In this document: piece after piece, positions 9,441-64,000 of the stretch
Numbering within the stretch: the stretch's first letter is position 1
Layout of the letters: every line of letters starts with the position of its first letter
Origin: Eledone cirrhosa
Lineage: Eukaryota
Reading direction: 5' to 3'
Length of the DNA: 64,000 nucleotides
NCBI GenBank assembly: GCA_964016885.1
Contig: OZ024746.1
Span: 13,082,001-13,146,000, forward strand
Notes under the pieces: generated by a model
The model's database searches: none
Told to the model about the DNA's origin: nothing
Seen by the model: only the letters and a program-made list of their open reading frames with translations
Program-made: the position numbers and the translations under genes

Positions 9441-9538
9441 TGTGTGTGTGTGTGTCTTGGATTCATTCGGGGGTAACCACAGTAAGTAAGGTACTCAATA
9501 CATTAGTAGAGTGTAAACATCATGTTTAATATAGAAAT

Positions 9539-9590
9539 GGCATCTACAGGAGTAGAACTGTTTCATTCAAAAGAAATCATCAGGAAAGCC
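9539..9590 (-). ncRNA. Type I hammerhead motif (left-arm copy, GUA site)
   Basis: Minus strand reads GGCTTTC-CTGATGA-TTTCTTTTGAAT-GAAA-CAG(ttctactc)CTG-TA-GATGCC. Confidence 0.7.
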
Positions 9591-9865
9591 GACTGTCCTT
9601 GTAAAACTGTTGTCTTTATATGTTTTCTGGTGGTTGGTGAAGGGTAGAGGTCATTGGCCAAGGATTTTAAAGAACAGGGATTCTTTGAAAAAGATATATA
9701 CACAATAATACAATGACACAGAAATCTGTGTCATTGTATTATTGTGTATATATCTAAAAATACTTTTTCAAAGAATCCCTGTTCTTTAAAATCCTTGGCC
9801 AATGACCTCTACCCTTCACCAACCACCAGAAAACATATAAAGACAACAGTTTTACAAGGACAGTC

Positions 9866-9917
9866 AGCTTTCCTGATGATTTCTTTTGAATGAAACAGTT
9901 CTAGTCCTGTGGAAGCC
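9866..9917 (+). ncRNA. Type I hammerhead motif (right-arm copy, GUG site, predicted non-cleaving)
   Basis: AGCTTTC-CTGATGA-TTTCTTTTGAAT-GAAA-CAG(ttctagtc)CTG-TG-GAAGCC. Confidence 0.65.
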
Positions 9918-10185
9918 ATTTTTATATTAAACATATATATATTTGTTATCTGGGGAAGACGGATGTTAAATGATGATGATTGTATACGGTAATGTTCTAG
10001 AGAGAATCCCGGTATTTGGGGGAGGTGTACAGAATGACAGCAGCACATTCACTCTTACAGTAACTCAAGTGTATGAGGCACGGAAGTTTTATGATGCAAT
10101 GTTATTAAATGAGAAGAGTGCCTGGGAGAGTTAGTGCCTATCCCATATAGACCGGATATTGTGCACAGATGCTGAGACAAATCAC

Positions 10186-11899: not shown

Positions 11900-14019
11900 A
11901 AATACGCTATCTTTAAGATCGCTTGTTTTCGCCCCCTTCAATTTATAAATTATCTGCAAATGCAATAAGACTGGGTTGTTTTCATTCGGTACAAAGCTTC
12001 AAATTATGATTATTTGGGTGTGGTGACGTTCGTAATTTTTAGGACTGAAGTTAACAGGGAATCGAAATTAGCTTGATATGAATATAAATGTAATATTGAT
12101 TTGAATAGTCATTAAATGAACCTTTGAAAGGGGGAAAGGAACAGTAGATTAATTAACAGATTATATTACTGGTATTATGTTTATTGATACTGGAATGGAA
12201 GGTAAAGGGATTAGACAGGTGTAAGAAAAACGACATAGCGAAGATGTCGGCTATATTTATAAGGTCAGAAGAAATTATGCGAGCGATATTCATACCTTTC
12301 CTGAGAGTATTAATGAACTGAAATGATTACAACAAAACCTAGTAGGAGATAGATTATGCGCAATTTATGTGAAGGGTGGCTGGGATATTGTTCATCTACA
12401 CCTTTCCCACGAAAATTAGCAATAAATGTGAAATGGCTACAACCACAAATTGTTTATTTCTTGGAACAAGGCCAATTTCACAGGAGGGCCCCACAGTCGA
12501 TACTGAAACTTATAAATCTTTGTGGGATTTGAGCGCAGAATAATGAGTTACCACACAGAAAACAGTAAAGTATCCTGTCATATTCTACTCTGTTCGTAGA
12601 GGTAGTCTATCAAAAATTTAACGAAGCTTCATTAACTTATCCCACCTAAAACGATAAGGTGTCCTCCAAAAATGTATACACACTTTTATTACCTGTACAG
12701 GCAATATTTATTAGAATGCTGTTGAAGTATGTATACATTTTTGGGGGTACACTCTGTATGTACAGTTGTTATGGTTTACAACTAGTTGTTTCAAAAGAAA
12801 CAGTTGTTAAAATACACTTATTTGTTATACTCTTTCAGAGGTTAGATGAAATACTGGATGGCTTATAACGTAAATTATTAAAATAATGAGTTGGCGCCAA
12901 GCACGGTGTTCGAAATTATCAAATTCAATGTTTAAACGTTTTTTTTTTTTAAGTTTCTTGCTATAAATTTTCTTTGATATTATTTTATTATTTACTGTAA
13001 TAATTTTTGAGGAAATAAATTAGCTCGACATTTATCTGATAACTTCGAATGTGATGCTTTATGTCAACTAAATAACCAACTAACCTTTGCGAAATTCAAT
13101 ATTTTATTAAACAAAATTGAAGAAATCTTAATTTCTTAAAAGCTTTTTTATCTACGCGAATAAAAACTATGGGTAGGAATTCCAAAACTGAAAATAAACA
13201 ATATCAGTGATTGATATTTGGATTGGTTAAAAGTGACGGTGCATTATTAATACAATGACACTTTCATTAGTAAATTGTCTTAAGCTGTATAATTTAATTA
13301 CAGACATTATCATTTAATCATTATACATTATGAGATTAATTTAATTTTTTTTTCCAACGAACACCATCGAAAAATTTAGGCTTTACCAGAATGGTCTTGC
13401 GGATAATTTTACGTCTACCAGTTTCTCTCTCTATTTCTCCCTCACAGGTAGAACGAAGTTCTTCACGTAGAAGTTAATAGGATCATTTTTAATTAAATGA
13501 TCAGAAGGTAATGTAATTAATCCCGTCATCTTTATGAAAAATAGCAATTGATGATTTAAATTACATCTATAGTTGTGAAGATTTAAAAAGCATACTCAGA
13601 TAGTATGTGGTCGATGTTATTATGTAAAATGTCAGTTTTTCTCACTTCCGGCATTGACGTTAGACGAAGGAGGAAGGTGAAAATAAAGAGAGTGAGACGG
13701 AGACTCCTATTAGAAACAACACTGAAAAGGGAAAGAAATATGTTGACGAATTTATTAATAAATATTACTACAATTTGTTTAGAAAAAATAAATATCTAGA
13801 GAATTATTTAGAAATAGAAAATTAAATATACCTTACTTGCAAACCTTGTTTTATATATATATAAAGAATAATATAATTGGTAATTTATTTTGGTTTACAT
13901 AATTTTTTAAAAATTTTAGTAAATGTTTTAAGTTTTTACTCTGAGTTTATAAATAAAGATTTCTAAAATCTATGAACATAACGTTTTTCTCTTTTTTTTT
14001 TTACGTGTAACACACACAC

Positions 14020-29484: not shown

Positions 29485-31218
29485 AATCATCATCATCATC
29501 ATCATCACCGTTTTACGTCCGTTCTTCCACGCTAGCATGGGTTAGACGGGTTGTCCTGTTGTCAGCAGTGTCTGGTCGGCTGACCATGCCTTGCTCATAC
29601 AGGAACTGATCTGGCTTGATTTCTACAGCTGGATGCCCTTCCTAACACCAACCTCATTTACAGTGAGTGCTGGGTGCTTTTTCGTGGCGCCTACACGTCC
29701 ACTTTACAGTGTGGGCTGGGTGCTTTTTTGCCGTGGCACCTCCACGACCACCTTGCGGTGGGGGGGGGGGGGGCATATTGTTTATATGCTTCAGCATGTA
29801 CCCATGGGAGGTCGGGAACCCTGTATTACTGCGTGACGCCAGAAGTCACGGTCGTGTGTCATTGACTTTGAGAGGTGTAGTTGGGTAAGGTCGGCTTTTA
29901 TCACCTCATCCCAAGTCATCTTGGGTCTCCCCACTCCGCGGTTTCCATCAACTTCTAGTGCTCTGCACCTTTTTATGCAGCTGTCATCCTTCATACGCAT
30001 CACATGTCCATACCAGCGTAACCGCCTCTCCTGCACGCAGCATTTGATTCCTCTTATGCTCAGTCTCTCTCTCAATTCCTTTATGCTTTGTCGTTCACGT
30101 ATATTACTGTTACACATCCATCGGAGCATGCAGGCTTCGTTTCTCTCTAATCTACGTAAGTCTTCCACCTTCAGCGCCCAGGTCTCACTACCTTGCAACA
30201 TCGCTGTTCGGATACACGCATCATACAGTCTGCCTTTCATTCTGAGGGAGAAGCCTTTTGCAGCTAGCAGTGGTAGTAGTTCCCTAAACTTCTTCCATCC
30301 CGTTCTTACCCTAGTTATTGTACTTTCTGAGCACCCACCTCCGTTGCTAATTCGGTCACCTAGGTAGCAGAAGCTGTCTACTGTTTCTACAGGGCCCTCC
30401 CAGAGATTGGTGGTACTTGTTTCCTGTGGCTGTCTGCTTGCTGTTTCAGCACAGCTGCTGCATGTGAATCCTACATTCTTAATTAAGCTTCCTGAGATCC
30501 CGCTACATCTCTTGTGTACCCATTGTTTGCCTTTGGGGCAGAGAATGGAGTTCCTACCTACACCTTTCCTACATACTGAGCAAGGCCATTTCCCTGAGGG
30601 GATCTGGGTTCTGTTTTCTCGTCTACTTATAAGGACCTTAGTCTTTGTCATGTTGACTTTGAGGCCCTTTCTCTCTAGTCCCTGCTTCCAGGTTTGGAAT
30701 TTATTCTCTAGTTCTACCATAGATTCAGCTATGAGTGCGAGGTCATCAGCATACAGGAGTTCCCATGGGCATCCGGTCTTAAACTCCTCCGTTATTGCCT
30801 GCAGGACTATGATGAACAGGAGAGGGCTAAGAACAGAGCCCTGGTGGACCCCAACCTGTACGCTAAATTCCTCGCTATACTCATTGCCAATCCTAACTTT
30901 GCTGACTGCTCCCCTATACATGGCTTGTACCGCTTTCACAAGCCATTCATCTACTCCTAGTTTTCTAAGAGCCCACCAGATTACTGCACGTGGAACTCTG
31001 TCAAAGGCTTTCTCAAGGTCGACAAATGCCAAGTAGAGTGGCTTACTTTTAGCTAGGTACTTTTCCTGTAATTGCCTCACAAGGAAGAGGGCATCAGTGG
31101 TGCCTTTCCCTGGTACAAACCCAAATTGCATCTCGTCTATATTCACCCGGTCCCTAATCAGCTGTGCTATAACTCTTTCTGTTACTTTCATGACCTGGTC
31201 CATCAACTTTATATCTCT
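29485..31218 (-). mobile_element. Young 5'-truncated RTE-clade LINE
   Basis: Uninterrupted RT ORF, 3'UTR with 48-bp-like units, near-palindromic terminal CCATGCTAGCGTGG and an (ATG)n tail. Possible GTAAAT TSD. Confidence 0.95.
29791..31206 (-). CDS. RTE reverse transcriptase (endonuclease lost by 5' truncation) with PHD-like Cys/His finger
   Basis: QFGF, FVDLEKAFD, GVHQGSVLSPLLF, YADD, FCYLG, GSETW, RLRWYGHVMR and GRPKMTW motifs. CxxC..CxxG..HxxC..CxxC insert after RT. Confidence 0.9.
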   Translation of the reverse strand: MMDQVMKVTERVIAQLIRDRVNIDEMQFGFVPGKGTTDALFLVRQLQEKYLAKSKPLYLAFVDLEKAFDRVPRAVIWWALRKLGVDEWLVKAVQAMYRGAVSKVRIGNEYSEEFSVQVGVHQGSVLSPLLFIIVLQAITEEFKTGCPWELLYADDLALIAESMVELENKFQTWKQGLERKGLKVNMTKTKVLISRRENRTQIPSGKWPCSVCRKGVGRNSILCPKGKQWVHKRCSGISGSLIKNVGFTCSSCAETASRQPQETSTTNLWEGPVETVDSFCYLGDRISNGGGCSESTITRVRTGWKKFRELLPLLAAKGFSLRMKGRLYDACIRTAMLQGSETWALKVEDLRRLERNEACMLRWMCNSNIRERQSIKELRERLSIRGIKCCVQERRLRWYGHVMRMKDDSCIKRCRALEVDGNRGVGRPKMTWDEVIKADLTQLHLSKSMTHDRDFWRHAVIQGSRPPMGTC

Positions 31219-31373
31219 CAGAGTAAATTAGATCTTCACAATTGGCATATTAATTGTGTGGCATTTTGGACCAGCATGCTTTTTACCATAGCCTCAAGTC
31301 AATTCAAGTCTATGAAACAAAATTATTTATAAGTAAGCTATTCATTAATTAACGTGCATATTCTTTTTCCTGC

Positions 31374-45610: not shown

Positions 45611-47074
45611 ACCAACTTTGTCTATAAAAACAATAATGTGTTTGACATGACCCAATTTCCTTCAGAGTTTTGGGTTCTGGATGAGTGTGTCAGGACAGTT
45701 TCTTCAACAGCACTGCCATGTATACTAAGGAGTTTTTAATATTATTTACAATCATTGCACATATGTTTTACAATGGTGGTAAACTCGTAGCAAAAAACCC
45801 TGCAAAGTAACAAACCATTTCACTTTACATTTATCATGTACTCAGGATTACTGGCAGTAGTCAATAATGTAGAGAGACTGGCTCTGCAGGTTGACTTGCC
45901 CTTGACATACTACATTAAACTGAAGCTTTTCATAGTAACCCAATGACCATTTAAAGATAATCAGTAATTTTATTTTTATTATAACCATTGACCTGAAGGA
46001 AGTTCCTTTAGAAAATGCTATTTTCCACTTCTTCAGAACATCACATGGACCACTGTCAAGCATTGTTTATTAATTCTGCTTTGAAAAAAAATGTAATAAA
46101 TATTTTCAATATCTGTATCCCAATATATATTTTTCATTAATGCCAAATCTGCCATACAAAGTTTTTTTTATTTGTCTTTGAATGTCGTGAATATTAGATA
46201 ATATAAAGAAAATGAACAGACTAAATATAGAAATTGTTTGTTTCCCGTCAACCTTTTGAAACTTGAATGTTCAACACCAATTTTTACTTATATTTTTCTT
46301 ATCTACATGTTTTTTAAGTTGATTTTTCAAGTTACTATTCCTCTTAGCTAATGTTGTCAATAATGAAATCAAAATAATTGAATTATGTTGGTTTATTTAT
46401 TGTCAGAAAATGCCATAAAATAATTTTATTGAAGGTTCTATGAATTTCCTTAGAAAATTTTGCTTTCAGTCGAAAATCTTTTCTCTTAAATGAAAGATCC
46501 TTTCCGAAACACCAGATTCCTCTTCTCCCCGAGGTATACAAACTTATCCAAACTCGTAAACCTTCTTCTATAAATTTTTGGGCTTTGGTTTTTACATTTC
46601 ATTGCAACAAATTTTTTCGGTATTAGACATTAACAATTTTTCTTTGAAAGTAACTCTTTCTCATCTTTTTATTTCACTCTTATCAAAATAGTATCTCTTA
46701 ATATTTTCCTTGTTAGTTCATTGTGAACAAAAACAGCTTTCATATTTAATATTATAGAGAAAATATAACTGTGAAACAGCTATAGAAAATGATTTAGACA
46801 TGTTATTACAAAGAGATGCAGTAGAAATGTCAGAAGGAACAGTTATATAGAATTATGATTCAAATGTTGGAATGAAGCACAATTATCTGTGATGAATGGA
46901 AGCCCTTCTACCAACACTGTCAAAAATAAGTTTTAAAAAATGATTGTAAAAGCTAAATGTTTTACTCAACAAGGAGTTGAGATGTGAAGATTATTTGCAA
47001 GGAAGAGTTAGCAAGCAAGCAAATGGCTTTCTGTTAATGTTAATAATATAGAAGGGTGTATATATATATATATA

Positions 47075-47293
47075 ACGAAGGAATTGTGGTAAGAAACCAG
47101 ATGGACTGTAATGCACCAGAGTACTCAATACTTAGGGTAGTAGAGTGGGTAATAAGAAAAAGTATGACCCCCAACGGCAGAGTTCAAGCCGTTTCGACAG
47201 CTATTTCTAGACTAAAATCAGTCTAGACTAAAATTAGTCAAGAAATAACCGTTGAAACGGCTTGAGCTCTGCCGTCAGGGTCATACTTTTTCC
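47075..47293 (-). mobile_element. Short fold-back element (hairpin 47156-47292 plus extension) in (TA)n, with a hammerhead 3' half
   Basis: Inverted arms of ~65 bp. GAAA-CGGC..GCCG-TC at 47254-47276. Extension motif GTACTCAATAC..TAGTAGAGTG is shared with 9491-9512. Confidence 0.7.
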
Positions 47294-47304
47294 TATATAT
47301 ATAT

Positions 47305-47421
47305 AAGGAAGGAAGGTGGACCATAACCCACCAAAGTACTATGGGTAGTAGAGGGGGTAATAGCAAAAGAGTCAGGACCCCAATGGCCGGAGCTTAGCCA
47401 TCGGGGTCCTGGCTCTTTTCC
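47305..47421 (-). mobile_element. Shorter relative of the preceding fold-back element (hairpin 47365-47419)
   Basis: AAAAGAGTCAGGACCCCAATGGC / GCCATCGGGGTCCTGGCTCTTTT. Shares GGGTAGTAGAG.GGGTAATA and the TTTTCC-TATATA end. Confidence 0.7.
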
Positions 47422-48238
47422 TATATATATATATATACTATGGATAGATTTGGCTAGTATATAGAACTGTAAACTATTTAGTAATGAATTACTTCTGACC
47501 TCAGTGAAGGAAGCTGATTTTTTAAAATACAGATTTTTTTATGATACATGCTTGTCTCAAATGATATATCATGTATGAAGAAAATGATTGTTCATTTTAT
47601 TTTAATGTTTCAAAGTTTTCCAATTGTTATTATACAAGTCAACAATTTTTCACAAACCATAAGGAGTTCTCTTTAGCCTCAAACATATAAATGTTGATAT
47701 TGATAAGATATGGTTCTATCATATTTAATGTTACCCAGAAAGTCTGGGTAAATTGAAACAGATAGAATTACATATATTGCCTAGTGACACAACAAAACAC
47801 TTACTATGAGATATAAATTACTGACTTGCGCACAGCAGATACATTAATATATTATTTCTTGGCTATATATTCTCATCTATTCAAATGTGTCATTCATTAA
47901 TAGAGATAACGTGAATACATTTTAATGGAGTGCATTAGTTTATGTCAATCTTTCTCCGCCCCCTCTTTCTTTCTCTCCATCTCTCTCTCCCTCTATATTC
48001 ACTTTTTTCCTACTTCTCACATTTATTCATTCATATCTGTTTTAAGTAATAAATCAATTTATTGTGTAACCAGCATGTAGCAATTGTCTTCCTACATTTT
48101 CTCTGTACTTAACTCTAGTTTATATAGAACTGTCATTTGATGGAATGAATAAATATTAAGTAAAGATAATATAGGAAAAATTATATCTGGAATGATGGCA
48201 TTAAGAATATCTTTAACAGAAGAAATAAGGATGAGTGA

Positions 48239-49169: not shown

Positions 49170-49616
49170 TTAACGGTCTGGGATTTTAAATAGTGTTATT
49201 TCAACTCTTTCATCTTGACGTTGGTAGAGTATTTCACCTTCAAACTTTAAAAGCTTGTGCCGGCGAGCCCGTATTAACATACCAACGAGTTTATTAGAAA
49301 TACGTAAGTAAGCCTGAAATAATTCACCAAATGTCACTACGACAGTTTTATCAGGTTGTGTTATTCCAATCTCAGCTATTATCATACAAAGTTCCTGGAT
49401 TTCATTGTAAACTGATTGCAACGCTTTTTGGCCACGAATTGCTGACAGTGTACCTTCAACTGGTCTTCCATAGTTTTCATCTGTTTTTGACAACGTTTGC
49501 CGATGAGAGGCACCATCCCATAATGAAAATGGATTAATTAATTGTTGTTCTTTGTGCTCATCTACACGTGTCTGCCAATTAGAGATTTCTGAGACCAAAT
49601 TTTTAGAAACAGGCAT
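49170..49616 (-). CDS. ABRA: Actin-binding Rho-activating protein (STARS) homologue, C-terminal Costars domain; last or only coding exon
   Basis: WQ..DEH..QQLINPFS, YGRPVEGT, VTFGELFQAYLRISNKLVGMLIRARRHKLLKFEGEILYQRQDERVEITL are ABRA/Costars hallmarks. Splice acceptor TTCCTCAACAG lies immediately before 49617. Confidence 0.92.
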   Translation of the reverse strand: MPVSKNLVSEISNWQTRVDEHKEQQLINPFSLWDGASHRQTLSKTDENYGRPVEGTLSAIRGQKALQSVYNEIQELCMIIAEIGITQPDKTVVVTFGELFQAYLRISNKLVGMLIRARRHKLLKFEGEILYQRQDERVEITLFKIPDR

Positions 49617-51817: not shown

Positions 51818-52954
51818 CTATATATGTGTGTGTGTGTGTCTATATATATGTGTGTGTGTGTGTGTATATATATATATGTGTGTGTGTGTATATATATATA
51901 TATGTGTGTGTCTATATATATGTGTGTGTGTGTCTATATATATATGTGTGTGTGTGTGTGTCATATATATATATGTGTGTGTGTGTGTGTCTATATATAT
52001 GTGTGTGTGTGTCTATATATATATGTGTGTGTGTGTGTCTATATATATATATGTGTGTGTGTCATCATCATCATCATCATCACCGTTTTACGTCCGTTCT
52101 TCCACGCTAGCATGGGTTAGACGGGTTGTCCTGTTGTGGGCAGTGTCTGGTCGGCTGACCATGCCTTGCTCATACAGGAACTGATCTGGCTTGATTTCTA
52201 CAGCTGGATGCCCTTCCTAACACCAACCTCATTTACAGTGAGTGCTGGGTGCTTTTTCGTGGCGCCTACACGTCCACTTTACAGTGTGGGCTGGGTGCTT
52301 TTTTGCCGTGGCACCTCCACGACCACCTTGCGGTGGGGGGAGTGGGGGCATATTGTTTATATGCTTCAGCTTGTACCCATGGGAGGTCGGGTACTCTGTA
52401 TTACTGCGTGACGCCAGAATTCACGGTCGTGTGTCATTGCCTTTGAGAGGTGTAATTGGGTAAGGTCGGCTTTTATCACCTCATCCCAGGTCATCTTGGG
52501 TCTCCCCACTCCGCGGTTTCCATCAACTTCTAGTGCTCTGCACCTTTTTATGCAGCTGTCATCCTTCATACGCATCACATGTCCATACCAGCGTAACCGC
52601 CTCTCCTGCACGCAGCATTTGATTCCTCTTATGCTCAGTCTCTCTCTCAATTCATTTATGCTTTGTCGTTCACGTATATTACTGTTACACATCCATCGGA
52701 GCATGCAGGCTTCGTTTCTCTCTAATCTAGGTAAGTCTTCCACCTTCAGCGCCCAGGTCTCACTACCATGCAACATCGCTGTTCGGATACACGCATCATA
52801 CAGTCTGCCTTTCATTCTGAGGGAGAAGCCTTTTGCAGCTAGCAGTGGTAGTAGTTCCCTAAACTTCTTCCATCCCGTTCTTACCCTAGTTATTGTACTT
52901 TCTGAGCACCCACCTCCGTTGCTAATTCGGTCACCTAGTGTGTCTATATATATA

Positions 52955-53005
<51 letters not shown>

Positions 53006-53082
53006 CTATATATATGTGTGTGTGTGTGTGTCTATATATATATGTGTGTGTGTGTGTCTATATATATATATGTGTGTGTGTG

Positions 53083-55650: not shown

Positions 55651-55769
55651 TGATTACAGCACCCACATTTCCATAGTGGTCACCCATCCAAGTAGTAACT
55701 AGACTTGACATTGATTAACTTCAGTGATCGGACCAGAACTAATGTTGTCAGTGTGATATGGCTGTAAAC
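55651..55769 (-). pseudogene. 5S rRNA-derived pseudogene
   Basis: Minus strand GTTTACAGCCATATCAC..GTCCGATCACTGAAGTTAA..TACTTGGATGGGTGACC..GGTGCTGTA is colinear with 5S over 119 nt and followed by a T-run. Many substitutions and CpG loss. Confidence 0.85.
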
Positions 55770-55955: not shown

Positions 55956-58900
55956 TCTAGAGTGGCATCCCAACAACTGACTGCACCAGTGGCACATCTA
56001 GAGTGGTGCCCCAACAACTGACTGCACCAGTGGCACATCTAGAGTGGTGCCCCAATAACTGACTGCACCAGTGGCACATCTAGAGTGGCACCCCAATAAC
56101 TGACTGCACCAGTGACACATCTAGAGTGACACCCCAATAACTGACTGCGCCAGTGGCACATCTAGAGTGGTGCCCCAACAACTGACTGCACCAGTGGCAC
56201 ATCTAGAGTGGTGCCCCAACAACTGACTGCACCAGTGGCACATCTAGAGTGGCGCCCCAACAACTGACTGCACCAGTGGCAGATCTAGAGTGGTGCCCCA
56301 ACAACTGACTGCACCAGTGGCACATCTAGAGTGGCACCCCAACAACTGACTGCACCAGTGGCACATCTAGAGTGGCGCCCCAATAACTGACTGCACCAGT
56401 GGCACATCTAGAGTGGCACCCCAATAACTGACTGCACCAGTGGCACATCTAGAGTGGCATGCCAACAACTGACTGCACCAGTGGCACATCTAGAGTGGCA
56501 CCCCAATAACTGACTGCACCAGTGACACATCTAGAGTGGCACCCCAATAACTGACTGCACCAGTGGCACATCTAGAGTGGCATGCCAGCAACTGACTGCA
56601 CCAGTGGCACATCTAGAGTGGTGCCCCAACAACTGACTGCACCAGTGACACATCTAGAGTGGCACCCCAATAACTGACTGCACCAGTGGCACATCTAGAG
56701 TGGCGCCCCAATAACTGACTGCACCAGTGGCACATCTAGAGTGGCACCCCAATAACTGACTGCACCAGTGGCACATCTAGAGTGACACCCCAACAACTGA
56801 CTGCACCAGTGGCACATCTAGAGTGGCACCCCAATAACTGACTGCACCAGTGGCACATCTAGAGTGGCATCCCAACAACTGACTGCACCAGTGGCACATC
56901 TAGAGTGGCACCCCAACACCTGACTGCACCAGTGGCACATCTAGAGTGGCACCCCAACAACTGACTGCACCAGTGGCACATCTAGAGTGGCGCCCCAATA
57001 ACTGACTGCACCAGTGACACATCTAGAGTGGCACGCCAACAACTGACTGCACCAGTGGCACATCTAGAGTGGCACCCCAATAACTGACTGCACCAGTGGC
57101 ACATCTAGAGTGACACCCCAATAACTGACTGCACCAGTGACACATCTAGAGTGGCACGCCAACAACTGACTGCACCAGTGGCACATCTAGAGTGGCACCC
57201 CAATAACTGACTGCACCAGTGGCACATCTAGAGTGACACCCCAATAACTGACTGCACCAGTGACACATCTAGAGTGGCACGCCAACAACTGACTGCACCA
57301 GTGGCACATCTAGAGTGGCACCCCAATAACTGACTGCACCAGTGACACATCTAGAGTGGCACCCCAACAACTGACTGTACCAGTGGCACATCTAGAGTGG
57401 CGCCCCAACAACTGACTGCACCAGTGGCACATCTAGAGTGGTGCCCCAACAACTGACTGCACCAGTGGCACATCTAGAGTGGAACGCCAACAACTGACTG
57501 CACCAGTGGCACATCTAGAGTGACACCCCAACAACTGACTGCACCAGTGGCACATCTAGAGTAGCACCCCAATAACTAACTGCACCAGTGACACATCTAG
57601 AGTGACACCCCAATAACTGACTGCACCAGTGGCACATCTAGAGTGGCGCCCCAATAACTGACTGCACCAGTGGCACATCTAGAGTGGTGCCCCAACAACT
57701 GACTGCACCAGTGGCACATCTAGAGTGGCACCCCAATAACTGACTGCACCAGTGACACATCTAGAGTGGCACCCCAATAACTGACTGCACCAGTGACACA
57801 TCTAGAGTGGCACGCCAACAACTGACTGCACCAGTGGCACATCTAGAGTGGCGCCCCAACAACTGACTGCACCAGTGACACATCTAGAGTGGCATGCCAA
57901 CAACTGACTGCACCAGTGGCACATCTAGAGTGGCACCCCAATAACTGACTGCACCAGTGGCACATCTAGAGTGGCATGCCAACAACTGACTGCACCAGTG
58001 GCACATCTAGAGTGGCGCCCCAACAACTGACTGCACCAGTGACACATCTAGAGTGGCACGCCAACAACTGACTGCACCAGTGGCACATCTAGAGTGGCAC
58101 CCCAATAACTGACTGCACCAGTGTCACATCTAGAGTGGCACCCCAATAACTGACTGCACCAGTGACACATCTAGAGTGGCACGCCAACAACTGACTGCAC
58201 CAGTGGCACATCTAGAGTGGCGCCCCAACAACTGACTGCACCAGTGGCACATCTAGAGTGGCACCCCAATAACTGACTGCACCAGTGGCACATCTAGAGT
58301 GGCACCCCAATAACTGACTGCACCAGTGGCACATCTAGAGTGGCACCCCAATAACTGACTGCACCAGTGACACATCTAGAGTGGCACGCCAATAACTGAC
58401 TGCACCAGTGGCACATCTAGAGTGGCACCCCAATAACTGACTGTACCAGTGACACATCTAGAGTGGCACGCCAACAACTGACTGCACCAGTGGCACATCT
58501 AGAGTTGCGCCCCAACACCTGACTGCACCAGTGACACATCTAGAGTGGCACCCCAACAACTGACTGCACCAGTGGCACATCTAGAGTGGCACCCCAACAC
58601 CTGACTGCACCAGTGGCACATCTAGAGTGACACCCCAACAACTGACTGCACCAGTGGCACATCTAGAGTGGTGCCCCAACAACTGACTGCACCAGTGGCA
58701 CATCTAGAGTGGCACCCCAACACCTGACTGCACCAGTGGCACATCTAGAGTGACACCCCAACAACTGACTGCACCAGTGGCACATCTAGAGTGGCACCCC
58801 AACACCTGACTGCACCAGTGGCACATCTAGAGTGGCATCCCAATAACTGACTGCACCAGTGGCACATCTAGAGTGGTGCCCCAACAACTGACTGCACCAG

Positions 58901-59343
58901 TGGCACATCTAGAGTGGTGCCCCAACAACTGACTGCACCAGTGGCACATCTAGAGTGGCGCCCCAACACCTGACTGCACCAGTGGCACATCTAGAGTGGC
59001 ACCCCAACAACTGACTGCACCAGTGGCACATCTAGAATGACACCCCAATAACTGACTGCACCAGTAGCACATCTAGAGTGGTGCCCCAACAACTGACTGC
59101 ACCAGTGGCACATCTAGAGTGGTGCCCCAACAACTGACTGCACTAGTGGCACATCTAGAGTGGCACCCCAATAACTGACTGCACCAGTGGCACATCTAGA
59201 GTGGTGCCCAACACATGACTGCACCAGTGGCACATCTAGAGTGGTGCCCCAACAACTGACTGCACTAGTGGCACATCTAGAGTGGTACCCCAGTAACTGA
59301 CTGCACTAGTGGCACATCTAGAGTGGCACCCAATAATTGACTG
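55956..59343. repeat. 41-bp satellite, ~82 copies
   Basis: Unit TCTAGAGTGGCACCCCAAYAACTGACTGCACCAGTGGCACA, with an XbaI site in each unit. Confidence 0.97.
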
Positions 59344-59401: not shown

Positions 59402-62400
59402 GGACAGTTTTGTGTCATAGAACCTGAGACAGTTGTGTGTCATAGAACCTGAGACAGTTTTGTGTCATAGAACCTGAGACAGTTGTGTGTCATAGAACCT
59501 GAGACAGTTGTGTGTCATAGAACCGGAGACAGTTTTGTGTCATAGAACCTGAGACAGTTGTGTGTCATAGAACCTGAGATAGTTGTGTGTCATAGAACCT
59601 GAGGCAATTTTGTGTCATAGAACCTGAGACAGTTGTGTGTCATAGAACCTGAGACAGTTCTGTCATAGAACCTGAGACAGTTGTGTGTCATAGAACCTGA
59701 GACAGTTTTGTGTCATAGAACCTGAGACAGTTGTGTGTCATAGAACCTGAGACAGTTGTGTGCATAGAACCTGAGACAGTTGTGTGTCATAGAACCTGAG
59801 ACAGCTGTGTGTCATAGAACCTGAGACAGTTGTGTGTCATAGAACCTGAGACAGTTGTGTGCATAGAACCTGAGACAGTTGTGTGTCATAGAACCTGAGA
59901 CAGTTGTGTGTCATAGAACCTGAGACAGTTGTGTGTCATAGAACCTGAGACAGTTTTGTGTCATAGAACCTGAGACAGTTGTGTGTCATAGAACCTGAGA
60001 CAGTTGTGTGTCATAGAACCTGAGGCAGTTTTGTGTCATAGAACCTGAGACAGTTGTGTGTCATAGAACCTGAGACAGTTGTGTGTCATAGAACCTGAGA
60101 CAGTTTTGTGTCATAGAACCTGAGACAGTTTGTGTCATAGAACCTGAGACAGTTGTGTGTCATAGAACCTGAGACAGTTGTGTGTCATAGAACCTGAGAC
60201 AGTTGTGTGTCATAGAACCTGAGACAGTTGTGTGTCATAGAACCTGAGACAGTTGTGTGTCATAGACCTGAGACAGTTGTGTGTCATAGAACCTGAGACA
60301 GTTGTGTGTCATAGAACCTGAGACAGTTTTGTGTCATAGAACCTGAGACAGTTTGTGTCATAGAACCTGAGACAGTTTTGTGTCATAGAACCTGAGACAG
60401 TTGTGTGTCATAGAACCTGAGACAGTTGTGTCATAGAACCTGAGACAGTTTTGTGTCATAGAACCTGAGACAGTTGTGTGTCATAGAACCTGAGACAGTT
60501 TTGTGTCATAGAACCTGAGACAGTTGTGTCATAGAACCTGAGACAGTTTTGTGTCATAGAACCTGAGACAGTTGTGTGTCATAGAACCTGAGACAGTTGT
60601 GTGTCATAGAACCTGAGACAGTTTTGTGTCATAGAACCTGAGACAGTTGTGTGTCATAGAACCTGAGACAGTTGTGTGTCATAGAACCTGAGGCAGTTTT
60701 GTGTCATAGAACCTGAGACAGTTGTGTGTCATAGAACCTGAGACAGTTGTGTGTCATAGAACCTGAGACAGTTTTGTGACATAGAACCTGAGACAGTTTG
60801 TGTCATAGAACCTGAGACAGTTGTGTGTCATAGAACCTGAGACAGTTGTGTGTCATAGAACCTGAGACAGTTGTGTGTCATAGAACCTGAGACAGTTGTG
60901 TCATAGAACCTGAGACAGTTTTGTGTCATAGAACCTGAGACAGTTGTGTGTCATAGAACCTGAGACAGTTTTGTGTCATAGAACCTGAGACAGTTGTGTG
61001 TCATAGAACCTGAGACAGTTTTGTGTCATAGAACCTAAGACAGTTTTGTGTCATAGAACCTGAGACAGTTGTGTCATAGAACCTGAGACAGTTTTGTGTC
61101 ATAGAACCTGAGACAGTTGTGTGTCATAGAACCTGAGACAGTTGTGTGTCATAGAACCTGAGACAGTTGTGTCATAGAACCTGAGACAGTTGTGTGTCAT
61201 AGAACCTGAGACAGTTGTGTGTCATAGAACCTGAGACAGTTTTGTGTCATAGAACCTGAGACAGTTGTGTGTCATAGAACCTGAGACAGTTTTGTGTCAT
61301 AGAACCTGAGACAGTTGTGTGTCATAGAACCTGAGACAGTTGTGTCATAGAACCTGAGACAGTTGTGTGTCATAGAACCTGAGACAGTTGTGTGTCATAG
61401 AAACTGAGACAGTTGTGTGTCATAGAACCTGAGACAGTTGTGTGTCATAGAAGCTGAGACAGTTGTGTGTCATAGAACCTGAGACAGTTTTGTGTCATAG
61501 AACCTGAGACAGTTGTGTGTCATAGAACCTGAGACAGTTTTGTGTCATAGAACCTGAGACAGTTGTGTGTCATAGAACCTGAGCCAGTTGTGTCATAGAA
61601 CCTGAGACAGTTGTGTGTCATAGAACCTGAGACAGTTGTGTGTCATAGAACCTGAGACAGTTGTGTGTCATAGAACCTGAGACAGTTGTGTCATAGAACC
61701 TGAGACAGTTGTGTGTCATAGAACCTGAGACAGTTGTGTCATAGAACCTGAGACAGTTTTGTGTCATAGAACCTGAGACAGTTGTGCGTCATAGAACCTG
61801 AGACAGTTGTGTGTCATAGAACCTGAGACAGTTGTGTCATAGAACCTGAGATAGTTGTGTGTCATAGAACCTGAGACAGTTGTGTGTCATAGAACCTGAG
61901 ACAGTTTTGTGTCATAGAACCTGAGACAGTTGTGTGTCATAGAACCTGAGAGAGTTTTGTGTCATAGAACCTGAGACAGTTGTGTGTCATAGAACCTGAG
62001 ACAGTTGTGTGTCATAGACCTGAGACAGTTGTGTGTCATAGAACCTGAGACAGTTGTGTGTCATAGAACCTGAGACAGTTTTGTGTCATAGAACCTGAGA
62101 CAGTTTGTGTCATAGAACCTGAGACAGTTTTGTGTCATAGAACCTGAGACAGTTGTGTGTCATAGAACCTGAGACAGTTGTGTCATAGAACCTGAGACAG
62201 TTTTGTGTCATAGAACCTGAGACAGTTGTGTGTCATAGAACCTGAGACAGTTTTGTGTCATAGAACCTGAGACAGTTGTGTGTCATAGAACCTGAGACAG
62301 TTTGTGTCATAGAACCTGAGACAGTTGTGTGTCATAGAACCTGAGACAGTTCTGTCATAGAACCTGAGACAGTTGTGTGTCATAGAACCTGAGACAGTTT

Positions 62401-64000
62401 TGTGTCATAGAACCTGAGACAGTTGTGTGTCATAGAACCTGAGACAGTTGTGTGCATAGAACCTGAGACAGTTGTGTGTCATAGAACTTGAGACAGCTGT
62501 GTGTCATAGAACCTGAGACAGTTGTGTGTCATAGAACCTGAGACAGTTGTGTGCATAGAACCTGAGACAGCTGTGTGTCATAGAACCTGAGACAGTTGTG
62601 TGTCATAGAACCTGAGACAGTTGTGTGTCATAGAACCTGAGACAGTTTTGTGTCATAGAACCTGAGACAGTTGTGTGTCATAGAACCTGAGACAGTTGTG
62701 TGTCATAGAACCTGAGGCAGTTTTGTGTCATAGAACCTGAGACAGTTGTGTGTCATAGAACCTGAGACAGTTGTGTGTCATAGAACCTGAGACAGTTTTG
62801 TGTCATATAACCTGAGACAGTTTGTGTCATAGAACCTGAGACAGTTGTGTGTCATAGAACCTGAGACAGTTGTGTGTCATAGAACCTGAGACAGTTTTGT
62901 GTCATAGAACCTGAGACAGTTGTGTGTCATAGAACCTGAGACAGTTTTGTGTCATAGAACCTGAGACAGTTTGTGTCATAGAACCTGAGACAGTTTTGTG
63001 TCATAGAACCTGAGACAGTTGTGTGTCATAGAACCTGAGACAGTTGTGTCATAGAACCTGAGACAGTTTTGTGTCATAGAACCTGAGACAGTTGTGTGTC
63101 ATAGAACCTGAGACAGTTTTGTGTCATAGAACCTGAGACAGTTGTGTGTCATAGAACCTGAGGCAGTTTTGTGTCATAGAACCTGAAACAGTTGTGTGTC
63201 ATAGAACCTGAGACAGTTGTGTGTCATAGAACCTGAGACAGTTTTGTGTCATAGAACCTGAGACAGTTGTGTGTCATAGAACCTGAGACAGTTGTGTGTC
63301 ATAGAACCTGAGACAGTTGTGTGTCATAGAACCTGAGACAGTTGTGTGTCATAGAACCTGAGACAGTTTTGTGTCATAGAACCTGAGACAGTTGTGTGTC
63401 ATAGAACCTGAGACAGTTGTGTGTCATAGAACCTGAGACAGTTTTGTGTCATAGAACCTGAGACAGTTGTGTGTCATAGAACCTGAGACAGTTTTGTGTC
63501 ATAGAACCTGAGACAGTTGTGTGTCATAGAACCTGAGACAGTTGTGTGTCATAGAACCTGAGACAGTTGTGTGTCATAGAACCTGAGACAGTTGTGTGTC
63601 ATAGAACCTGAGACAGTTTTGTGTCATAGAACCTGAGACAGTTTTGTGTCATAGAACCTGAGACAGTTTTGTGTCATAGAACCTGAGACAGTTGTGTGTC
63701 ATAGAACCTGAGACAGTTGTGTGTCATAGACCTGAGACAGTTGTGTGTCATAGAACCTGAGACAGTTGTGTGTCATAGAACCTGAGACAGTTTTGTGTCA
63801 TAGAACCTGAGACAGTTTGTGTCATAGAACCTGAGACAGTTGTGTCATAGAACCTGAGATAGTTGTGTGTCATAGAACCTGAGACAGTTGTGTGTCATAG
63901 AACCTGAGACAGTTTTGTGTCATAGAACCTGAGACAGTTGTGTGTCATAGAACCTGAGACAGTTTTGTGTCATAGAACCTGAGACAGTTTTGTCATAGAA
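59402..64000. repeat. 25-bp satellite, ~185 copies, runs off the window end
   Basis: Unit GACAGTTKTGTGTCATAGAACCTGA, with 23- and 24-bp deletion variants. Confidence 0.97.

Follow-up and report, generated by a model that had tools for sequence, protein, structure and literature searches.

Tail-plus-palindrome insertions in a TA microsatellite of Eledone cirrhosa, likely truncated ends of Hydra-type Penelope-like elements

Two short hairpin elements, here called E1 and E2, lie in tandem in a TA microsatellite of the octopus Eledone cirrhosa, within a window of 64,000 nucleotides (assembly GCA_964016885.1, contig OZ024746.1, positions 13,082,001 to 13,146,000). They raise the question of what kind of element leaves a palindrome with a tail on one end only, and how the two arms of such a palindrome come to be joined. 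The insertion unit of those Penelope-like elements (PLEs) that bear an endonuclease is described as a head-to-head inverted, 5'-truncated copy with a tail on one arm (PMC3846280, PMC8557442). Two origins of this palindrome and its one-sided tail are under discussion: self-priming, proposed from genome structure by Arkhipova et al. 2013 (PMC3846280), and two-strand, two-site priming as observed in vitro, where a PLE protein, in purified form, was seen to nick either strand and to extend it, with RT beginning from a pair of sites that delimit the tail (PMC11167929). An abundant family with asymmetric apex loops bears on this choice, as counting loop orientation relative to the tail separates the priming models. 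We favour, with moderate confidence, the reading that E1 and E2 are tail-plus-palindrome insertions in the TA microsatellite, likely truncated Hydra-type PLE ends, whose arms were likely copied separately from both nicked strands and then joined.

Two insertions and the family to which they belong

The layout of both elements is given in Table 1, together with that of E3, a comparator recovered by the same scans. A sequence-only reading of this stretch had described (TA)n flanks, TTTTCC ends and a motif common to the two elements, all of which are present. In the window the common motif had 2 exact matches, whereas none arose in 100 shuffles with up to 3 mismatches allowed. Fold z-scores were -15.2 for E1 and -7.5 for E2, and 0 of 200 shuffles folded equally well. 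The block that the same reading had assigned to each arm of E1 was also found, as GAAA-CGGC-9 nt-GCCG-TY-RGGGTC on the minus strand from 47195 and on the plus strand from 47254, with a 6-bp stem and 9-nt loop computed at 47193-47173. Both E1 arms hold in it the GAAA, stem III and UH part of a type I hammerhead. At the apex of E1, TRF reported a duplication of period 16 and 2.4 copies.

Table 1. Positions of E1, E2 and the comparator E3 in the window
Feature	Position	Strand	Remarks
(TA)8 target microsatellite, left	47059..47074	.	
E1, whole element	47075..47293		80-nt one-sided tail plus palindrome
E1 one-sided tail (element 3' end)	47075..47154	-	80 nt; 77 if the microsatellite-shared TAT is counted with the arm
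E1 bulged tail hairpin	47123..47146	-	two 4-bp segments with a 2-nt bulge between them on the 3' side, and a loop; ACT follows; from folds and descriptor match
Motif common to E1 and E2	47135-47154 and 47343-47362		
E1 tail-bearing arm	47155..47224	-	GAAA 47195-47192, stem III 47191-47175, 9-nt loop, UH, stem-I 3' strand; no CUGANGA
E1 apex	47206..47243		centre between 47224 and 47225; within 16-bp tandem duplication; rare in family
E1 inverted tail-less arm	47225..47293	+	GAAA 47254-47257, stem III 47258-47274, GTC triplet 47274-47276; TTTTCC end at microsatellite
(TA)6 separating the two insertions	47294..47305	.	
E2, whole element	47306..47421		57-nt one-sided tail plus palindrome
E2 tail	47306..47362	-	16 nt and 7 nt missing relative to E1
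E2 tail-bearing arm	47363..47387	-	stops at stem-III strand
E2 apex, 9-nt loop	47388..47396	+	loop III of second subfamily, in tail-less-arm orientation
E2 inverted tail-less arm	47397..47421	+	TTTTCC end
(TA)8 target microsatellite, right	47422..47437	.	
E3	about 9456-9934	-	tail plus palindrome with complete hammerhead core
E3 tail	about 9456-9521		same bulged hairpin as E1, from 9512
E3 palindrome	9522-9934		apex 9723-9724; tail-less arm meets (TA)n
E3 CTGATGA core	9583 and 9873	- and +	one per arm

The two elements resemble the inverted-pLTR-plus-tail unit of PLEs (PMC3846280; Frangieh et al. 2024, PMC11167929) in the head-to-head copy, the palindromic junction, the one-arm tail and the AT-rich target. 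At 116-219 bp they are far shorter than those PLE units, and their tails measure 57-80 nt against a published 30-40 bp. In each of them a truncated copy is joined head to head with its inverse and only one end bears a tail, two features by which PLE insertions are recognized; in E3 the tail is about 66 nt long. Insertion into (TA)n, as in the Hydra clade, was likewise found for both, a feature that is not diagnostic, since Naiads have the same target. E2 is a member of a second subfamily, whose tail has two gaps relative to E1 (Table 1).

Four of eight sequencing runs were aligned to 46960-47540 at 80% likeness, which placed 17,975 contigs of run X2 and 26,837 raw reads of run X6. Summed X2 depth was 0.9-3.0 million across the E1 tail as opposed to 10-15 on the flanks, while X6 depth on the unique flanks was zero, so that the X6 reads stem from other loci. 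The summed depth, which is no copy number, is taken to indicate only an order of about 10^5 copies for the E1/E2 family. A second species (run X5) contributed 30 contigs, one of them spanning 47061-47216. Loose ends of X6 reads consisted of (TA)n before 47057 (745 reads), before 47059 (3,056) and behind 47305 (3,813). The E2-type tail is rare in the family (X2 depth 1,957 at 47320-47339).

Where the arms of E1 and E2 mismatch, the common read letter restored pairing at 10 of 11 pairs in E1 and 2 of 3 in E2, so the arms were near-identical at the start and then decayed; 4 of the 11 E1 mismatches are CpG-type changes. For the pairs 47216/47233 and 47217/47232, the restoring letter has 170 of 173 and 13 of 13 reads behind it in X6, and only about half of the depth in X2. 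E1 and E2 themselves are ordinary decayed insertions. Joints that skip 347 positions from 47074 to 47422 (2 contigs in run X1, 5 contigs in X2 and 392 reads in X6) were rejected as evidence of an empty site, because their sides are 19-20 mostly-TA letters and the X6 flank depth is zero. Opposite-strand joints at 47160-47171 were read as alignment switches between the arms rather than as apices. Joints and loose ends of X1 at 47114 mark tail variants that retain the small outer hairpin with other letters, a pattern that suggests further subfamilies and covariation in the outer tail.

Half a hammerhead and a hairpin in the tail

The sequence-only reading held that E1 lacks the CUGANGA half of the ribozyme, and no exact CTGANGA occurs on either strand of 46901-47600. 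Two one-mismatch matches within E1 hinge on 47277 and 47199, positions at which the majority of reads differ. The hairpin list contained no stem II partner, within either E1 arm, for the strand preceding GAAA, and neither such a partner nor CUGANGA is found in the 29 nt upstream of GAAA, where E1 stops. Two upstream continuations were examined, alongside which stand 733 other loose ends: one at 47203, represented by 769 X6 reads (agreement 0.6) that extend into other sequence over a median length of 71 nt, and one X5 contig at 47216. CTGANGA was absent from 30 letters of each. The 769-read continuation holds a look-alike that matches 4 of the 7 CTGANGA letters near the expected place of the core, at an agreement of 0.6 and with no stem-I partner.

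Comparison with Rfam gave 17 matches for E1 and E2 to E 10 and 33 for E3 to E 5, with no hammerhead family among either set. This test is weak for such variants, because E3, which has the full core motif, went unmatched as well. Matches to miRNA families mirror the hairpin shape alone and were set aside. A twister-like reading of the tail, based on what we take to be the twister consensus, was also rejected, as its pairing fails and Rfam lends it no support.

Each arm of E3 carries CTGATGA, a 3-bp stem II, GAAA, a 4-bp stem III, an 8-nt loop and a stem-I partner. Its arms of 172 nt are 97% identical; E3 is younger than E1 and E2 and belongs to a second family. The hammerhead fold of the two arms has -3.1 and -2.8 kcal/mol, against -10.2 and -7.4 for the minimum-energy fold, and one arm has a G at the cleavage base; for these reasons we claim no activity for E3. 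Near its centre E3 has 9 extra bases on one side, and it is placed between two similar 38-nt repeat ends. Other loose CTGANGA...GAAA core matches in the window, at 183, 1897 (plus) and 18848 (minus), are likely due to chance.

The tail of E3 contains the bulged hairpin of E1, and this hairpin here accompanies a complete upstream core, which supports the half-hammerhead reading of E1 and E2. The spacing agrees: GAAA and tail hairpin are separated by 49 nt in E1 and 52 nt in full-core E3, as computed, and by 51, 56 and 60 nt in three Hydra-clade consensuses, as measured by eye (PMC8557442). The proposal of a half-hammerhead is thus probably right, although for the E1/E2 family itself no longer copy with CTGANGA was seen, and the GAAA-stem-UH block is very likely the 3' half of a Penelope-type hammerhead. 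With the second core half only, the E1 and E2 stubs are, by their motif content, not ribozymes.

For the tail hairpin we built a descriptor from two published Hydra tails alone, but chosen after the likeness had been noticed. E1 matches it with 2 mismatches, which compensate for each other as a pair; no shuffle scored as well, whether of the element (0 of 2000) or of the window (0 of 40). The best match of E2 has 8 mismatches; its bulged hairpin is broken by the 7-nt gap. E3 matches with 3 mismatches, a score also reached in 17 of 40 shuffled windows, so that the E3 match draws its weight from position. A 20-letter gapped hairpin motif common to E1 and E3 had 2 matches in the window against 0 in 100 shuffles. 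A bulged hairpin 49-60 nt from GAAA, as present in E1, is a feature defined here and is no part of the published definition of the Hydra clade.

Six new Hydra-clade consensuses are given in the supplement of PMC8557442, and in their listed ends, inspected by eye, the hairpin is clear in two, looser in one and absent in three. The clear cases, Hydra-2_Amil and Hydra-2_Ajap, have the bulged hairpin followed by ACT, as E1 does, with a compensatory change between the two; Hydra-1_Crog has the looser form; and Hydra-1_Obim, with a short listed end, is among those without it and shows no likeness to E1 or E2 by eye. Hydra-2_Ajap and E2 both terminate in a ACCTTCCT-type run. Elements of the Hydra clade also share with E1 and E2 the (TA)n target and, near the 3' end, GAA-A with a 3-4 bp stem III and UH (PMC8557442); a (TA)n preference is recorded for 26 of 27 Hydra families, with one family from Octopus bimaculoides. 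In contrast to these PLEs, E1 and E2 have no ORF, no CUGANGA and no stem II, and loop III of E1 comprises 9 nt with an internal palindrome as against 1-3 nt in the Hydra motifs listed there. These comparisons make it likely that E1 and E2 are the 3' ends, truncated on their 5' side, of a Penelope-like retroelement of Hydra type. The assignment rests on non-coding features, because no RT/EN-coding partner was found; proteins of the clade are marked by RWK, DKT and CxCX5C and have no CCHH. The word 'hairpin' occurs 0 times in the main text of PMC8557442. The conserved tail hairpin is a candidate RT recognition signal and would give the Hydra clade, on which few studies exist, a candidate signal for RT binding.

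Other known systems share part of these features. The minimal type I hammerheads that PLEs carry (Cervera and De la Pena 2014, PMC4209133) resemble E1 in GAAA, a stem III with palindromic loop and UH, and metazoan PLE hammerheads occur there as head-to-head pairs 100-700 bp apart; E1 and E2 differ from them in having only the second core half and a longer stem III. Loop III contains a short palindrome of 6-8 nt in the E1 family (47179-47187, 47262-47270) and of 4 nt in one E3 arm (9546-9553), as in dimer-forming hammerheads. Cephalopod Naiads (Naiad_Obim, Naiad_Ovul), described as long-inactive remnants, have in common with E1 and E2 the (TA)n target and GTC-GAAA near the 3' end, but the octopus Naiads carry CTGATGA about 30 nt downstream of GAAA, which E1 and E2 do not, and no sequence likeness is seen by eye in the listed ends (PMC8557442). 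A non-LTR retrozyme, built of head-to-tail tandem units each with a complete hammerhead (bioRxiv 10.64898/2026.07.22.740005), was rejected as an identity, as E1 and E2 have no such units.

A side observation concerns the Naiads themselves. In the 3' ends of Naiad_Obim, Naiad_Ovul and a third consensus in PMC8557442, the half core can be paired by eye into all three hammerhead helices, though their order is permuted: the 5' strand of stem II leads and contains the cleavage strand, GAAA follows, and CTGATGA closes the row. This was seen at 3 of the 13 places that have the word searched for. The letters of these helices differ between the octopus pair and the third sequence, and the Naiad 3' ends are possibly a split or pseudoknotted hammerhead.

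The same features bear on two readings outside the Penelope-like elements. If the hammerhead likeness were due to chance, a MITE or a fold-back DNA transposon that targets TA would account for the palindrome, the TA flanks and the lack of any Rfam ribozyme match. We consider it very unlikely: the termini are not inverted repeats of each other, because the tail is one-sided; the apices vary; and the tail hairpin and GAAA spacing are common to full-core E3 and the Hydra-clade consensuses. A tRNA-derived SINE on the plus strand, with an A-box-like stretch at 47138, a B-box-like stretch at 47182 and a T-run terminator at the end, is hardly credible. The spacing of these boxes, according to what we take to be their consensus, is suitable by eye, but ARAGORN found no tRNA, the B-box needs a T at 47183 where 353,750 of 396,683 of the X2 depth is C, and sequence conserved in the family continues for about 55 nt upstream of where the SINE would start. 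SINEs are nevertheless abundant in octopus (PMC13282606, PMC8967140).

Apices, loop orientation and priming

In the sequence-only reading the shorter palindrome turned around at the ribozyme's own stem III. This is the case for E2, but E2 represents just 1 of 9 junction types seen, the others being E1, E3, one X5 contig and five inner joints, the last taken from the 15 of 183 joints that were listed. The turning point of E1 lies 29 nt upstream of GAAA, that of E3 140 nt upstream of CTGATGA, and that of the X5 contig beyond 47216; on their left the five inner joints end at 47203-47208, at a distance of 8-13 nt upstream of GAAA. At most about 390 X6 reads can cover a centre of the E2 type, compared to 12,000-14,000 reads over the E1 tail. 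Stem III is therefore a possible place of joining but no general one. Small self-complementary bits are found at several of the remaining apices, as any joining by annealing would require.

The loop of stem III is asymmetric and therefore records which strand crossed it. In 1,446 tail-bearing X6 reads of the E2-type arm, the loop stands in tail-arm orientation, one way on the plus strand. Compared with these reads, the E2 loop agrees in 1 of 9 letters on the plus strand and in 8 of 9 on the minus strand. In agreement with this, the plus-strand loop of E2 shares 5 of 9 letters with the tail-less arm of E1 and 2 of 9 with its tail arm, so that the alignment of the E2 centre with stem III of E1, as drawn in the sequence-only reading, stands for the stem and fails for the strand. 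The same reading had a truncated cDNA fold back and self-prime the second arm; the tail-less-arm orientation of the E2 loop speaks against it. We infer that the loop was copied by a cDNA begun at the inner, tail-less end, an argument from one old copy whose loop, lying between inverted arms, can invert after insertion. A cDNA from the inner end that folds back cannot add a tail, and two cDNAs are therefore the simplest account. Fold-back of the tail-less cDNA before joining may have occurred, in which case the earlier proposal may be right in part.

The alternative of a single tail-primed cDNA that folds back and self-primes on a pre-existing stem likewise assumes a Penelope-type origin and needs the E2 loop to have flipped later; we hold it to be unlikely. 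It has for it that the E2 apex is exactly stem III, that the apices of E1 and of the X5 contig are also at small self-complementary bits, and that self-priming has already been proposed for PLE palindromes (PMC3846280). Simple fold-back predicts the tail-arm orientation, which is that of the 1,446 tail-bearing reads of the E2 subfamily, whereas E2 has the opposite, and such fold-back is accordingly disfavoured; the rarity of stem III among the junction types and of E2-type centres in X6 weighs against it as well. Both E1 arms have the same variant at 47159/47289 and at 47179/47270, sites that vary in the family, as one folded cDNA would leave them, but variants common to both arms are equally expected from two cDNAs on one RNA.

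In the two-cDNA account that we favour, an element-encoded GIY-YIG/RT protein would bind the structured tail and nick (TA)n on both strands. The first cDNA would begin at the tail end (47075 in E1, 47306 in E2) and the other at an inner site after TTCC (47293 and 47421), 8-10 nt before the bulged hairpin in E1 and E3; two different start sites would therefore give the one-sided tail. The cDNAs would be primed on opposite nicked (TA)n strands, would both stop early and would be joined where their 3' ends are complementary. At E2 the joint would be stem III, through which the tail-less cDNA had run, whether or not it first folded back, and the resulting E1 and E2 stubs would not be active ribozymes. 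This account fits the two-strand nicking and the two start sites observed in vitro (PMC11167929), although the available text of that study notes no difference in start site between the strands and leaves inverted copies aside. The E2 junction provides a read-out of strand orientation that is unused in the available text of PMC3846280 and PMC11167929.

Depth upstream of GAAA points to a further possibility, a ribozyme-less hairpin master: a short palindrome plus tail whose transcripts, made by read-through, a Hydra-type protein would mobilise again in trans, with arm length capped and CUGANGA lost family-wide. Within about 25 nt upstream of GAAA, X2 depth collapses from 325,254 at 47209 to 148 at 47217, where the rare E1-type apex lies, and X6 depth falls from 4,827 at 47199 to 784 at 47209 and 13 at 47217. 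Single apex joints have an X2 depth of 112-634 as opposed to 10-15 on single-copy flanks, so that some apices are common to copies, and CTGANGA is absent from the listed continuations. Yet the apices are heterogeneous, with five inner joints among the 15 of 183 listed; the drop in depth is partly due to subfamily divergence at the 80% cut-off and to contig breaks at palindromes; the 769 X6 reads at 47203 continue into other sequence; and short common apices can recur independently at a hot spot. We regard such a master as improbable.

A bolder combination, to which we give little more than tentative credence, would have on the order of 10^5 copies of a hairpin mini-element that lacks a ribozyme and propagates itself. 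Penelope proteins of Hydra type would mobilise it in trans by way of the bulged tail hairpin, whose conservation would reach from corals and sea cucumbers to octopus, and the orientation of the apex loop would record two cDNAs primed on opposite target strands.

Occurrence and surroundings

In O. vulgaris, 190 families of Penelope-like elements account for 6.83% of the genome (PMC13282606). PLE architecture, PLE hammerheads and self-priming have been published already; the additions here are the tail hairpin and the orientation read-out. Literature searches brought up no description of the E1/E2 family, of a tail hairpin in Hydra elements or of any test by loop orientation, and the family may already be in Repbase, Dfam or the O. 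vulgaris library (Zenodo). Motif scans of public genome, viral and metagenome contig collections found no copies of the family. The common motif had 1 viral and 12 metagenome matches, in which the likeness was limited to the motif and (TA)n was lacking, and a loose tail motif had 65 viral matches, of which 0 had a hammerhead core or TA tract nearby; both sets were attributed to chance. Longer or gapped motifs gave 0 matches in genome contigs and 0 in viral contigs. The family spreads long perfect hairpins across the octopus genome, which are possible double-stranded RNA editing substrates.

E1 and E2 are located about 1.7 kb beyond the stop codon of a Costars-domain exon (Pfam) at 49170-49616 on the minus strand, which shares 82% identity with a protein of Octopus bimaculoides and 69% with one of Argonauta (best 2 of 60 matches) and so marks the host as an octopod. 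In run X1 the ratio of family to flank depth is about 1,700, as against about 200,000-300,000 in X2; two contigs of 3,725 and 1,091 nt extend outward from the elements, and a contig across 47174-47540 has 12 differences. This pattern would fit a transcriptome over a long 3' UTR of the Costars gene.

Elsewhere in the window, RVT_1 reverse-transcriptase fragments occur at 29791-31227 (minus) and 52366-53031, presumably from an RTE-like LINE, and related 240-bp 3' ends are repeated across the window. A 5S rRNA copy lies at 55651-55769 (minus), next to 41-bp and 25-bp satellite arrays at 55956-59343 and 59403-64000.
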